Sequence record: NC_055780.1 | Strand: one strand, 5' to 3' | DNA: 64,000 nt | Source of the DNA: Escherichia phage MLF4 | Shown here: piece after piece, positions 6,057 to 11,107 of the stretch | Position numbering within the stretch: position 1 is the stretch's first letter | How the letters are laid out: each line of letters opens with the position of its first letter | Notes under the pieces: model-generated | Told to the model about the DNA's origin: nothing | The model's database searches: none | Seen by the model: the letters and a program-made list of their open reading frames with translations, nothing else | Program-made: the position numbers and the translations under genes

Positions 6057-6086
6057 GTTTACTTTCCGTTTGAGCTGTGATACTAT
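6057..6086 (+). promoter_or_regulatory. T4-type early promoter
   Basis: GTTTAC 6057-6062, 18-nt spacer, TACTAT 6081-6086. Confidence 0.5.
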
Positions 6087-7031: not shown

Positions 7032-7216
7032 TGACAAGTGAGCAGGCTTTTAAATTAAGAGAATTAATTGAGACGTATAGTAAAGCTGTTCATACATCAA
7101 CAATTATTGATGAATCAGCTTTCTCCGGACATGCTAACAAGATTAAATACAAAACTCTTATGGAAGAAGCTAAAGTAAATCTCGATTCTTATATTGAAAC
7201 TTTAATTGGTAAATAA
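7031..7216 (+). CDS. hypothetical protein (61 aa)
   Basis: ATG after CAGAGGAG. Confidence 0.45.
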   Translation: MTSEQAFKLRELIETYSKAVHTSTIIDESAFSGHANKIKYKTLMEEAKVNLDSYIETLIGK

Positions 7217-7217
7217 T

Positions 7218-7760
7218 ATGAAAGCTGTAATTGAAACAACTGATTTGTTCGGTGACCTAGTTATCGAAAAACGCGGTAATGTATACGTTCTGACGCAGGA
7301 AGACGATAGTATTACTATTCTTCCTATGGAACTGGCTGCGATTTTATCTTATGCTCCCTCAGGAGTTACCGGTGTAACTAATATTACAGGTGACCTCCAA
7401 GTTCGTTTTTATCGTGGCCTTTACGGCGGTAATATTGAAACTGAATTTATGTGTCTTTCTATCAACAATTGGGCAACATTCGTTGCCAAGGTGAAAGAAT
7501 TCTTAGAATCTGAAACAGTCGAAACACCCGAAAAGGCTAAACTTCAATGGGCTAAAGATCGCGGTGCTAACATTATTAATCCAGTAGCTGCAAACTATAC
7601 TACGACTTTGGATGTCAAGACTTCTTATGAAGATGGCGATGTCGTACTTGTTCGCCAAAATGATGATTCTCGAGCACATATTGTCACATTTACCAAAGAC
7701 GAAGCTATTGCGCTAAAGACTTATCTTGATTCTGTCATTCCAACTATGATTTCAAAGTGA
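7218..7760 (+). CDS. hypothetical protein (180 aa), paralog of next gene
   Basis: ORF-track start 7206 is TTG; ATG at 7218; shares module ..Q.DD..I.....EA.A...YL with 7767 gene. Confidence 0.5.
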   Translation: MKAVIETTDLFGDLVIEKRGNVYVLTQEDDSITILPMELAAILSYAPSGVTGVTNITGDLQVRFYRGLYGGNIETEFMCLSINNWATFVAKVKEFLESETVETPEKAKLQWAKDRGANIINPVAANYTTTLDVKTSYEDGDVVLVRQNDDSRAHIVTFTKDEAIALKTYLDSVIPTMISK

Positions 7761-7766
7761 GGAAAT

Positions 7767-8288
7767 ATGTTTATTTCAAGTGGAAGTGGTTTAATTCGTG
7801 TTGAATTTAAAAATGACATCTTTCTTATTCAAGGAGATGATATTATTAAAATGAGTTATGACGAAATCAAGAAAATTTGTCATGCTCTTGAAAGTCATGG
7901 AAAAGTGAACGCTGTTATTGATATTGGCGATTTATGGGTGACACTTTATGAAGTATCCGAAGGATTTAACATTGAAGATGAAAATAACATTTTAGCTATT
8001 GATAAAAGAAGTGATTTGTTTGATGTATTAAAAGTTTATGAACAGTCAAATGGCGGAAGAAAAGCTGCATTGATTTATCAAAAACCGCATTCATGTGGAA
8101 CTGCTTCAATCATTTCAAATATTGAAGATGAAGTTGATACTTATATGTGTGTTTTAAAAGCTGGTGGTGACCGTCATCCGGATTTTATTTCTATTCGTCA
8201 AAACAATGGAGAAATTTCATTATCAAAATCAGAAGCTGAAGCTATGATTAAGTATTTAACAACTGTTACGCCTTCAATGAGAGGATAA
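7767..8288 (+). CDS. hypothetical protein (173 aa), paralog of previous gene
   Basis: ATG after GTGAGGAAAT; similar C-terminal module to 7218 gene. Confidence 0.5.
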   Translation: MFISSGSGLIRVEFKNDIFLIQGDDIIKMSYDEIKKICHALESHGKVNAVIDIGDLWVTLYEVSEGFNIEDENNILAIDKRSDLFDVLKVYEQSNGGRKAALIYQKPHSCGTASIISNIEDEVDTYMCVLKAGGDRHPDFISIRQNNGEISLSKSEAEAMIKYLTTVTPSMRG

Positions 8289-8290
8289 TT

Positions 8291-8752
8291 ATGATTATTA
8301 ATGAAAACTCTTGGCACTATAAATTATTCAAATTGTTTAACGATGAATGGCAACGACCTAAGACACTATGCGCATATTTTTGGTCTATTGCCATTCCTAC
8401 ATTTTTCGTTTCTATTTTTGGATGTGCTATACTCGTAGGGCTAACAATTATTTGTGCAGAAAGCCTACAGCGTTGGATTATTTTTGGTAGTTTATGGACT
8501 TTGCTTCCATCAGCATTTATACTTGCGCTTTTGGTTGTTTTACTTATTATCGGTTCATTTGTTATTCCTGCACATTTGCGTGAAAAATATAAAGATTATA
8601 AATGGAAAAAGGATTATGCTTTACACGTAGAAAATATTGATAGGGCGTATAAAGGTTTACCTCCTATTCAACCCAAGAAATCTATTATCGTCGAATTTTT
8701 AAAAGCCCGTAAAGCTAAAGTATGTCCTGTTATTGAATATAAGGCTGAATGA
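8291..8752 (+). CDS. integral membrane protein (153 aa)
   Basis: ATG after GAGGATAATT; 2-3 long hydrophobic segments. Confidence 0.5.
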   Translation: MIINENSWHYKLFKLFNDEWQRPKTLCAYFWSIAIPTFFVSIFGCAILVGLTIICAESLQRWIIFGSLWTLLPSAFILALLVVLLIIGSFVIPAHLREKYKDYKWKKDYALHVENIDRAYKGLPPIQPKKSIIVEFLKARKAKVCPVIEYKAE

Positions 8753-9762
8753 TGAAAACAGTAATGAAAAGCTATTTTGGTAGTCATCTTTATGGAACTT
8801 CTACTCCAGAATCTGATGTAGATTTTAAAGAAATCTTTGTTCCTCCTGCTCGCGATATTCTTATCGGAAATGTCAAAGAGCACATGAGTAAAAACACTAA
8901 CAATACATCATCTAAAAACACTAAAGATGATATTGACCATGAACTATACAGTCTTAAATATTTCTTTAAATTAGCAGCAGATGGTGAAACCGTAGCATTG
9001 GATATGCTTCACACTCCACCTGAACTAGTGGTTAAATCCGATTTGCCTGATGTGTGGAAGTTTATTCAAGACAACCGTTCTCGTTTTTATACGACTAACA
9101 TGAAATCATATTTAGGATATGTCCGCAAGCAAGCTTCTAAATACGGCGTCAAGGGTTCTCGTTTGGCTGCATTACGTGATGTATTGAAAGTAGTTAATCA
9201 AATCCCTGAGCAATGGGTTGATTACCAAGAAGACGGTTCCATTAAGCAGCGTCGTACTAAAGTTGAAGATATTAAGCATCGTCTTCCAGAAAACGAATTC
9301 TGTGAATGGGTGTTCCATAATCATGAGAAAACAGGCCCACAAACGTTCTACACTGTGTTGGGTCGTAAATATCAGACAACGCTTTCTCTTATTGAGCTTA
9401 AGCAGTCACTGAACAAATTAGATGCTGAATACGGTGAACGTGCTCGTAAGGCCGAAGCCAATGAAGGCATTGATTGGAAAGCACTAAGTCATGCTTGTCG
9501 TGGTGGACTCCAACTATTGGAAATTTACAAAACTGGTGACTTAGTCTATCCACTTCAAGATGCTCCATTTATTCTCGACGTGAAGTTGGGTAAACATCCA
9601 TTTAAAACAGTTCAAGAGTTTTTGGAAGATGTGGTCGATCAAGTAGAAGCAGCATCTACTGAAGCTTCTAAGAACGGTATGCCTAAAACAGTAGACATGA
9701 GTTTCTGGGATGACTTCCTTGAGAAGGTCTATCTTGAAAACCACCGAAGTTATTATAAATGA
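8749..9762 (+). CDS. nucleotidyltransferase-fold protein (pol-beta superfamily-like, 337 aa)
   Basis: ATGATG overlapping upstream stop; N-terminal GSHLYGTSTPESDVDF matches G[GS]x9-13DhD NTase motif. Confidence 0.55.
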   Translation: MMKTVMKSYFGSHLYGTSTPESDVDFKEIFVPPARDILIGNVKEHMSKNTNNTSSKNTKDDIDHELYSLKYFFKLAADGETVALDMLHTPPELVVKSDLPDVWKFIQDNRSRFYTTNMKSYLGYVRKQASKYGVKGSRLAALRDVLKVVNQIPEQWVDYQEDGSIKQRRTKVEDIKHRLPENEFCEWVFHNHEKTGPQTFYTVLGRKYQTTLSLIELKQSLNKLDAEYGERARKAEANEGIDWKALSHACRGGLQLLEIYKTGDLVYPLQDAPFILDVKLGKHPFKTVQEFLEDVVDQVEAASTEASKNGMPKTVDMSFWDDFLEKVYLENHRSYYK

Positions 9763-9764
9763 TA

Positions 9765-9788
9765 GGGAGCCTTCGGGCTCCCTTTTTT
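9765..9788 (+). terminator. hairpin terminator (GGGAGCC-TTCG-GGCTCCC + T6)
   Basis: 7-bp GC stem, UUCG loop, TTTTTT. Confidence 0.6.
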
Positions 9789-9812
9789 ATTTCAAAAATT
9801 TTTCACAAAACT

Positions 9813-9842
9813 GTTTACAAGCATAAAGCTTTATGGTACTAT
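9813..9842 (+). promoter_or_regulatory. T4-type early promoter with upstream TTTTCACAAAA element
   Basis: GTTTAC 9813-9818, 18-nt spacer, TACTAT 9837-9842. Confidence 0.55.
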
Positions 9843-9880
9843 ACAACTATCAAAACAAATGAGTAAATTGGAGATACAAA

Positions 9881-10081
9881 ATGACTACTTTGAATAAACG
9901 TTTCGGTAAAGCTAAATCTGGGTGTGCAGCTGAACGTCGTTATGTTTTCGCTCAGTTAGAAGATGTAGAGTATCAGATTAATCAAGTTCACATTACTGGT
10001 ATCGAGCCTATGTGTGGCCTTGAAGCTCTTCGTGAAGTTCGTGACGGGTATCGTCGTGACATCGAAGAAATGTCAAAATAA
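9881..10081 (+). CDS. hypothetical protein (66 aa)
   Basis: ATG after GGAGAT. Confidence 0.45.
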   Translation: MTTLNKRFGKAKSGCAAERRYVFAQLEDVEYQINQVHITGIEPMCGLEALREVRDGYRRDIEEMSK

Positions 10082-10092
10082 GTATACAAACT

Positions 10093-10120
10093 GATAGGAC
10101 TATGTTATAGTAGTCCTATC
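10093..10120 (+). repeat. perfect 10-bp inverted repeat (GATAGGACTA / TAGTCCTATC, 8-nt spacer)
   Basis: Read directly; overlaps a -10-like TATAGT in the 5' leader of the AAA+ gene. Confidence 0.6.
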
Positions 10121-10138
10121 AAATCAAAGGAGAATAAA

Positions 10139-11107
10139 ATGAAAACTGTAACTATCAATAAGGGTATTTACTTCGGTAAAGAAATCTCTGGAACTTTTGA
10201 GCTCTTAGGCGAATGGTTCCCAGATAATGCTCCGGTAGATGCACAAGGAGATGGTAAAGTTTTTGTTGAAATTGACGGTAAACGTCGCGGTGTTTGGGTT
10301 TACAAATCAGACATTTCATATGATGGTGTAAAAGTTGAAGAAGTTAAAGAATCGTATGAAGATATGAAAACCCGCATTAATAAAAGATTTAATGTTATGG
10401 GAATGATGACGAATGGTATTATTAACGGAAACATTCGTTCATTAATTATCTCTGGTGCAGCAGGTATTGGTAAAACGTATTCTTTAGATAAAGCTTTAAA
10501 TAAAGCAAATGATATTGGATACATTGAATATAAAAGCATTAATGGTAAAATCTCTGGTATTGGTCTTTATGAGCAGCTTTGGAATAATCGTGAAGAGAAT
10601 TCTGTCCTTTTGATTGATGATGTGGATGTTTTCTCTGATATGGACATTCTTAATCTTCTGAAAGCTGCTCTGGACACTGGAGAGACCCGTAAAGTCTGCT
10701 GGAGCACCGCATCTTCTTACTTAGAAGAAAAAGGCATTGAGCGTGAGTTTGAATTTAAAGGAACGATTGTTTTTATCACAAACGTTGACATTGACCGCGA
10801 ATTAGACCGTGGTACTAAACTTGCTCCACATTTACAAGCATTAGTGTCCCGCTCAGTTTATTTGGATTTGGGTGTTCACACTAATGAAGAAATTATGGTC
10901 AGGGTTGAAGATGTTATTCTTTCAACTGACATGATGCAAAAGCGCGGTCTTTCTGATGAAGAAACTTATAAAGCATTATCATGGATGAAAGTCAATGTTA
11001 ATCGTTTACGCAATGTTTCACTGCGTACTGCTCTTTATCTTGCTGACTTTATTATGACCGACAAAAACGGTTGGGAAGAAATCGCTGAGGTTACTCTTCT
11101 GAAATAA
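10139..11107 (+). CDS. AAA+ family ATPase (322 aa)
   Basis: ATG after AAAGGAGAA; Walker A GAAGIGKT, Walker B LLIDDVD. Confidence 0.6.
   Translation: MKTVTINKGIYFGKEISGTFELLGEWFPDNAPVDAQGDGKVFVEIDGKRRGVWVYKSDISYDGVKVEEVKESYEDMKTRINKRFNVMGMMTNGIINGNIRSLIISGAAGIGKTYSLDKALNKANDIGYIEYKSINGKISGIGLYEQLWNNREENSVLLIDDVDVFSDMDILNLLKAALDTGETRKVCWSTASSYLEEKGIEREFEFKGTIVFITNVDIDRELDRGTKLAPHLQALVSRSVYLDLGVHTNEEIMVRVEDVILSTDMMQKRGLSDEETYKALSWMKVNVNRLRNVSLRTALYLADFIMTDKNGWEEIAEVTLLK

Follow-up and report, generated by a model that had tools for sequence, protein, structure and literature searches.

Bacteriophage T4 is the system in which RNA repair was discovered as a phage counterdefense, with Pnkp and Rnl1 set against PrrC, and nucleases of the RloC type have been proposed to beat Pnkp/Rnl1 repair through nucleotide excision. 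Here, a stretch of 64,000 nucleotides from Escherichia phage MLF4 (NC_055780.1), referred to below as the window, was analyzed for orthologs of two T4 genes that it carries side by side: nrdC.11, encoding a nucleotidyltransferase (NTase) of the RlaP family, and nrdC.10, encoding an AAA+ ATPase. The best overall explanation of the locus, to which we assign a probability of roughly 0.55, is that NrdC.11 is an RlaP NTase that participates in tRNA repair and that nrdC.10 is an independently transcribed gene, the two being neighbors by conserved gene order. If NrdC.11 does restore a missing nucleotide, this would be the next move in the arms race between T4 and its host, in a model phage. The locus is not a new kind of element; the analysis re-identifies catalogued genes and adds genomic reasons to regard the NTase and ATPase genes as separate.

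Both genes have long been catalogued in T4, with NTase and AAA+ domain assignments dating from 2006 to 2016. In 2006, nrdC.11 was assigned to the COG3541 nucleotidyltransferases and nrdC.10 to an AAA ATPase family (PMC1524935). RlaP was named for its linkage to RNA ligases, and phage RlaPs were predicted to replace, ahead of ligation, the nucleotides that a cleaved tRNA has lost (PMC7824862). The closest biochemical precedent is a December 2025 preprint on two Pseudomonas RlaPs (from P. fluorescens and P. aeruginosa), which added one or two nucleoside monophosphates (NMPs) to RNA 3'-OH ends, preferred Mn2+, and labeled neither DNA nor protein (PMC12776372). With each of the four nucleoside triphosphates (NTPs), these enzymes labeled rRNA and tRNA, the latter both at full length and as fragments, and showed a moderate substrate preference; on a nicked-tRNA mimic, their favored site was the 3' terminus of the 5' half, and they partly restored aminoacylation of a tRNA short of one anticodon-loop nucleotide (PMC12776372). 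The product end is a 3'-OH, a chemistry that suits T4-type ligases (PMC12776372). The same work described an RlaP architecture in which an NTase domain is combined with a helical domain, with three strictly conserved catalytic Asp residues, and explicitly assigned T4 NrdC.11 to cluster 5 of PF10127 (PMC12776372). The family as a whole is linked to RNA ligases (PMC12776372, PMC7824862). In T4, the block from nrdC.11 to mobD.3 can be deleted and is not needed for growth in the laboratory (PMC9825161).

Judged by its sequence, the window comes from a T2/T4-like Tequatrovirus. About 3.3 kb around both genes is 98 to 99% identical to hundreds of Tequatrovirus genomes; a DNA identity of 98.7% to Tequatroviruses and a gene order that matches the T4 nrdC-mobD map one for one speak for orthology, and the window is AT-rich throughout (GC content, 32 to 37%). 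The NTase gene and its catalytic positions are as follows, the third being placed from its invariance and from its strand position in an AlphaFold2 (AF2) model.

8749..9762, + strand: nrdC.11 ortholog, RlaP-family (PF10127) Pol-beta-fold NTase, 337 residues
8779..8826, + strand: NTase signature G11-S12-x10-D23-V-D25-F26 (GSHLYGTSTPESDVDF), two of the three catalytic carboxylates
8935..8937, + strand: codon of D63, candidate third catalytic Asp (I-D-H, at the head of strand 62-68)

A preliminary description of the window, made from the letters alone, had reported a 337-residue open reading frame (ORF) at 8749 with a G[GS]...DxD signature, and both are present; an alternative ATG at 8752 gives the 336-residue form annotated in T4 and relatives. 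Orthology is demonstrated by protein identities of 98 to 100% to Tequatrovirus proteins, T4 nrdC.11 among them. Like T4 NrdC.11 (NP_049709; PF10127 RlaP, formerly COG3541), to which it is 98% identical in the T4T version, the protein is encoded in the same genomic slot, and the terminator and early promoter 3' of its gene are those of T4. Unlike in T4, a gene for a 153-residue membrane protein lies 5' of the NTase, where T4 has mobD, and a cassette with a 66-residue gene follows the promoter.

Family membership was established with profile searches. Pfam RlaP (PF10127) matched the NTase with 43.9 bits against a gathering cutoff of 23 (E = 3.1e-11), the alignment being limited to residues 7-135, and phrog_388, labeled "nucleotidyltransferase," matched with E = 7e-138. 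An exhaustive search for relatives yielded 3508 clusters at 50% identity, 832 of them with E <= 1e-30 and mostly full length. Each of the 36 sampled diverse homologs matched RlaP alone. In these homologs (34 to 55% identity), residues G11, S12, S22, D23, D25, and D63 are invariant, as they are in 41 further sequences; the other invariant columns in the 36 are G16, N57, W103, Y124, Y132, R231, K244, H248, R251, P268, and K279, and D61, D85, and D242 are conserved in at least 90%. Because of the RlaP match and these invariant residues, the motif is not a chance occurrence.

The predicted structure agrees with this assignment. The AF2 model (predicted local distance difference test [pLDDT] score, 88) has an N-terminal NTase domain and a C-terminal helical domain, which answers the preliminary description's call for a structure prediction, and NTase-fold proteins are among its structural neighbors. 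D63 opens beta strand 62-68 and is the candidate for the expected third carboxylate, the residue that the same description had proposed to look for. Since D63 is invariant and heads this strand, the objection that the protein lacks a catalytic triad does not hold; NrdC.11 has both the motif and a candidate for the third carboxylate, as required of the NTase superfamily. The Pol-beta superfamily assignment in the preliminary description is therefore upheld by the RlaP match, the third Asp, and the NTase-fold neighbors. The scores for the NTase are modest, and PDB sequence and family-profile searches with it found no solved structure near it in sequence.

The resemblance to the Pseudomonas enzymes extends to the Pfam family, the three conserved Asp residues, and the order of an N-terminal NTase domain and a C-terminal helical domain, and addition of one or two NMPs to RNA 3'-OH is predicted for the phage protein by analogy. 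Untemplated NMP addition to an RNA 3'-OH is thus the most likely activity of NrdC.11, and its most probable job would be the refilling of nuclease-excised tRNA 5' halves ahead of sealing by Pnkp and Rnl1; we infer this activity for the T4-type enzyme, as well as the tRNA substrate and the cooperation with Pnkp and Rnl1. The RNA-repair function that was among the options of the preliminary description fits the RlaP family and the biochemistry of the bacterial RlaPs (PMC12776372). In the proposed pathway, an RloC-type anticodon nuclease of the host would cut a tRNA and excise a nucleotide, and T4 Pnkp would heal the cut ends to 3'-OH and 5'-P. NrdC.11 would then extend the tRNA 5' half at its 3'-OH by one or two untemplated NMPs, rebuilding the lost nucleotide, with catalysis presumably through D23, D25, D63, and a divalent metal (Mn2+ being preferred in the family). 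Finally, Rnl1, a 5'-P/3'-OH ligase, would reseal the tRNA, its anticodon loop back to full length.

The phage protein and the Pseudomonas RlaPs also differ. T4 NrdC.11 is in cluster 5 and the bacterial enzymes are in cluster 1a; the phage protein has a beta-rich insert (at about residues 155-209), and its Pfam alignment ends at 135; and the bacterial genes are within rtcB-rtcA operons, whereas the phage gene does not adjoin a ligase gene.

The second part of the explanation, that the two genes are separate, rests in part on the DNA between them, which contains the following transcription signals.

9764..9783, + strand: intrinsic terminator hairpin AGGGAGCC-TTCG-GGCTCCCT, then TTTTTTA, closing the nrdC.11 transcription unit
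9813..9842, + strand: T4-type early promoter GTTTACA-N-TGGTACTAT, corresponding to T4 "early promoter 54.4"

The terminator is strong and lies directly 3' of the NTase stop codon. Its sequence is identical in T4, and a terminator is annotated for this intergenic region in the T4 record U76612 and in phage R5505. The promoter sequence is likewise identical in T4 and is annotated as "early promoter 54.4" in U76612. When the window was scanned with the T4 early-promoter consensus GTTTAC-N16-GGTAYTAT, allowing at most one mismatch, 10 matches were found, all on the + strand, with 0.04 expected by chance (positions 1864, 6057, 9813, 11514, 14470, 22569, 36868, 46762, 54072, and 59486). The closest match 5' of nrdC.11 is that at 6057; the terminator at 9764-9783 ends that stretch, and nrdC.10 follows the promoter at 9813. 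The best explanation is that nrdC.11 and nrdC.10 are two independently transcribed early genes within the hyperplastic nrdC-mobD region of T4, nrdC.10 being read from its own early promoter, and we infer that the ATPase is independent of the NTase. The preliminary description of this intergenic region had recorded a single 66-residue gene, which was found at 9881-10081, and had overlooked both the terminator and the early promoter.

Together, the terminator and early promoter (9764-9842) form a composite of the promoter-early stem-loop (PeSL) type. PeSL composites undergo modular shuffling in the hyperplastic regions of T4-like phages (PMC2839356, PMC4122927). As in PeSL cassettes, a strong stem-loop terminator is followed directly by a sigma-70-like early promoter, and the site is a junction of differing gene content between close relatives at which a small ORF has been inserted. 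Unlike in PeSL cassettes, a second hairpin (10092-10121) has no T-run and no promoter after it; the likeness is one of sequence arrangement.

The product of the downstream gene was characterized in the same way as the NTase.

10139..11107, + strand: nrdC.10 ortholog, AAA+ ATPase, 322 residues
10454..10477, + strand: Walker A, GAAGIGKT, residues 106-113, from its conservation in 33 homologs
10607..10627, + strand: Walker B, LLIDDVD, residues 157-163, from its conservation in 33 homologs

Homologs of the ATPase at 54 to 89% identity have 71 invariant columns in common. Across the 33 that were compared, G106, A107, G109, G111, and K112 of Walker A and D160 and D161 of Walker B are invariant, T113 and D163 are conserved in at least 90%, and N215 (candidate sensor 1) and R238, R291, and R296 (candidates for Arg finger and sensor 2) are invariant. 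In the AF2 model (pLDDT, 89), residues 1-62 form an N-terminal beta domain and residues 73-95 a linker helix; the ASCE core spans 101-243, and a helical lid follows at 249-320. A Foldseek search of the PDB gave 149 matches at E <= 1e-3. The 50 listed are without exception AAA+ proteins, including E1 helicase, ORC/Cdc6, NSF/Sec18, RuvB, RFC, Hda, and dynein, at 11 to 19% identity and TM scores of 0.2 to 0.45, with an E of about 1e-5 and a probability of 1.0. NrdC.10 is a bona fide AAA+ ATPase that has been assigned to no specific clade, and the AAA+ assignment of the preliminary description, drawn from GAAGIGKT and LLIDDVD, is confirmed by the Walker motifs, the sensor-1 Asn, the Arg residues, the alpha-helical lid, and the exclusively AAA+ proteins among the listed structural matches.

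Like generic AAA+ proteins (ORC/Cdc6, Hda/DnaA, RFC clamp loaders, RuvB, NSF, and the SF3 E1 helicase), NrdC.10 has the ASCE core, Walker A and B, sensor-1 Asn, Arg residues, and helical lid; unlike them, it has an N-terminal beta domain that is peculiar to NrdC.10. Pfam AAA and nSTAND models matched only below their gathering scores, the Hda model TIGR03420 scored 14.7 bits against a cutoff of 194.8, and a PDB profile search with the ATPase family gave Cdc6 at E = 0.16. Pfam, NCBIfam, PADLOC, and PDB-sequence searches gave no significant family-level match for the ATPase, and phrog_1250, labeled "unknown function," matched it at E = 1e-166. A DnaA-like ATPase, suggested by the look of Walker B, box VII, and sensor 2, was dropped: hhalign against E. 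coli DnaA gave a probability of 17%, over the Walker A-B stretch. The protein is the ortholog of T4 NrdC.10 (NP_049708, phrog_1250), is 99.7% identical to a T4 record, and shows no substantive difference from it. NrdC.10 is at least 99% identical at the protein level in 481 phage records, which is unusual conservation for a gene of a hyperplastic region. As a separate observation, NrdC.10-like ATPases are encoded by jumbo phages (358-378 kb; H132-H134) and by a set of viral contigs from metagenomes (L026-L035); their alignment to NrdC.10 starts only at about residue 62-79, and they therefore lack the N-terminal beta domain.

Several observations weigh against a tRNA-repair NTase beside an independent ATPase gene. 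Homologs of Rnl1, Rnl2, and PseT are absent from the 64-kb window and from within 10 kb of the NTase in T-even-like loci, and in T4 itself rnlA, rnlB, and pseT sit 50-80 kb from nrdC.11; with no ligase or Pnkp gene near the NTase in T-even-like loci, the link to repair holds only at the level of the genome. Association with RNA ligase and repair genes is a tendency of the family and not a requirement for RlaP membership. In favor of the repair role, some more distant NrdC.11-like loci have such genes close by: an Rnl1 homolog is within 10 kb in L053, L118, and L129, an Rnl2-like ligase in L052, and a PseT homolog in L117, L119, and L120. The C-terminal 200 residues of the NTase, including the invariant R231, D242-W-K244, H248, and R251, are outside the RlaP model alignment, and T4 NrdC.11 falls into a sequence-similarity cluster separate from that of the assayed enzymes, as part of a divergent subfamily. 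The order membrane protein-NTase-ATPase persists in T-even-like and Acinetobacter T4-like phages while the surrounding genes turn over, so that a functional tie between these genes is possible. T4 terminators are often leaky, and cotranscription of the NTase and ATPase by read-through is therefore also possible.

A functional tie of this kind would make NrdC.11 and NrdC.10, possibly with the membrane protein, a counterdefense or RNA-processing module in which the ATPase delivers or remodels a substrate for the NTase, whether damaged tRNA, ribosome, or host defense complex. A related version, for the ordered trio in T-even-like and Acinetobacter T4-like phages, is a counterdefense unit in which the ATPase uses ATP hydrolysis to hand the NTase its target (damaged tRNA, RNA bound to ribosomes, or a host effector); if true, such a unit would extend the T4 Pnkp/Rnl1 pathway to defeat nucleotide-excising anticodon nucleases such as RloC. 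Consistent with both, in all 34 sampled NTase loci that have the two genes, these share a strand and the NTase comes first, both are early genes, and the trio is retained in Acinetobacter and Klebsiella-type T4-like loci in which nrdC.5-nrdC.9 homologs were not detected. Against them stand the terminator and the separate early promoter between the genes and the phyletic distribution. Of 43 ATPase-centered viral loci, 9 have an NTase within 10 kb, and all 9 of these ATPases are at least 66% identical to the present one; an NTase is near none of the 34 more distant ATPases (within 10 kb) and is found in none of 3 further contigs (6-kb flanks). Conversely, 34 of 78 NTase-centered viral loci have the ATPase nearby, it is missing from some near relatives that retain the NTase (e.g., L059, L061, and L091; NTase identity, 82%), and it is not near the NTase in any lineage in which the NTase is 51% identical or less. 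Measured from the end of the NTase ORF, the ATPase open frame begins between -58 and 2272 bp away, and unrelated genes have been inserted in the gap; on a single 183-kb contig, the two genes are about 40 kb apart (L019 and L108); and the host distributions of the NTase (1503 phage records) and the ATPase (1310) differ. We consider both the two-gene module and the trio unit improbable. Operonic coupling was rejected as the leading interpretation on the intervening terminator and promoter together with the phyletic data, and the two-gene module of the preliminary description is unsupported on the same grounds and on the mobile insertion described below. The adjacency of nrdC.11 and nrdC.10 reflects shared ancestry and conserved order in T-even-like phages, with no sign of a dedicated two-gene module.

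With the two genes taken as neighbors, the function of NrdC.11 itself can be weighed against other NTase activities. The most credible alternative is that, instead of anticodon-loop breaks, the enzyme acts on RNA 3' ends of other kinds, such as the 3'-CCA ends of phage or host tRNAs trimmed in infection or the ends of phage mRNA. The broad labeling of RNAs with all four NTPs by the assayed RlaPs, with its moderate preference, is compatible with this, as are T-even loci without a ligase nearby, but the site favored by those enzymes in the nicked-tRNA mimic is the 3' terminus of the 5' half, the family is linked to RNA ligases (PMC12776372, PMC7824862), and some distant loci lie near Rnl1 or PseT; we regard this alternative as unlikely. 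An enzyme that modifies protein or small molecules, such as an MntA-like AMPylating antitoxin with a HEPN-like domain in cis or an aminoglycoside-NTase-like protein, is very unlikely. Its HEPN-like C-terminal bundle and a 13-bit MntA match point in that direction, yet the MntA model NF047752 scored 13.2 bits against a cutoff of 60, which also leaves the MNT toxin option of the preliminary description unsupported; the bacterial RlaPs left proteins unlabeled; and no toxin partner is nearby, the neighbors being the membrane protein and the 66-residue ORF. Least probable, and hardly credible, is a CD-NTase-like or HalB-like role, in which NrdC.11 would synthesize a nucleotide signal or oligonucleotide, or mimic such a synthase, making or counterfeiting a second messenger to subvert host defense. 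Only fold-level similarity to HalB speaks for it, and this is the generic NTase fold (TM about 0.26-0.38). By sequence the protein belongs to RlaP and to no defense NTase family, PADLOC gave no hits and NCBIfam no meaningful matches for the NTase, and cGAS/DncV-type structures are absent among the listed structural matches; the assayed RlaPs add one or two nucleotides to RNA and neither polymerize nor cyclize. The CD-NTase signaling option of the preliminary description was set aside on the RlaP membership, the PADLOC result, and the absence of such structures.

Between the early promoter and nrdC.10, the window differs from T4 by an insertion of about 257 bp, just 3' of the promoter, that comprises a 66-residue ORF and a hairpin.

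9881..10081, + strand: 66-residue ORF, phrog_6200 (unknown function), part of the insertion relative to T4
10092..10121, + strand: perfect 11-bp inverted repeat, arms 10092-10102 and 10111-10121, at the 3' end of the 66-residue-gene cassette

As RNA, the inverted repeat would fold into a 12-bp stem with a 6-nucleotide loop and no T-run, at -17.7 kcal/mol (z = -5.0 versus shuffled sequences); the stem-loop ends 4 nucleotides ahead of the nrdC.10 Shine-Dalgarno sequence AAGGAG and leaves AAGGAG free. T4 has neither the ORF nor the stem-loop, and of 78 viral NTase loci, only 1 has the ORF between the NTase and ATPase genes. A copy of the cassette is present in the Mosigvirus O157 typing phage 3 (O157tp3; L134, 2590-2846), 92% identical to window positions 9845-10135. 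There it occupies a different locus, near e/rppH, its ORF and hairpin standing before an unrelated gene, and the early promoter in front of the cassette shares both the GTTTACAAG -35 and the TACTATA -10 elements. This pattern suggests that the ORF and stem-loop belong to a mobile early-gene cassette of promoter, ORF, and hairpin, which would have landed just 3' of the early promoter, ahead of nrdC.10. The inverted repeat was considered and rejected as a regulator of the ATPase: because it is absent from T4 and travels with the ORF to another locus, it belongs to the cassette. The preliminary description was thus right that a perfect inverted repeat is present, but the repeat is 11 bp rather than 10 bp and marks the 3' end of the cassette rather than the leader of the ATPase gene.

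The gene upstream of the NTase occupies the slot of a T4 homing endonuclease.

8291..8752, + strand: predicted membrane protein of 153 residues, phrog_944 ("membrane protein"), in the slot of T4 mobD

Its stop codon overlaps the start of the NTase (GAATGATGA). In 41 of 81 NTase loci, a gene for this membrane protein lies directly 5' of the NTase gene, and the ATPase is kept near in 34 of the 81. Just 5' of the gene at 8291 are two tandem paralogs (7206-7760 and 7767-8288) that belong to the y05I-like family of T4, labeled "putative transcription factor" (PF24449 plus PF24448).

No tRNA genes were found in the 64-kb window, and no Rfam family reached its gathering score between 6000 and 13000; matches to L20_leader and ARRPOF fell below it and were discarded as chance. 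In GenBank relatives, many NTase and ATPase homologs are labeled "thioredoxin," and one NTase is labeled "HNH homing endonuclease"; these labels were rejected as functional evidence, being carried over from the gene names nrdC.N and mobD. In one metagenomic contig (L054, 4350-9698), an IS605-type OrfB/TnpB gene directly follows an NrdC.11-like NTase gene and is flanked by a duplicated DNMK-SSB segment.

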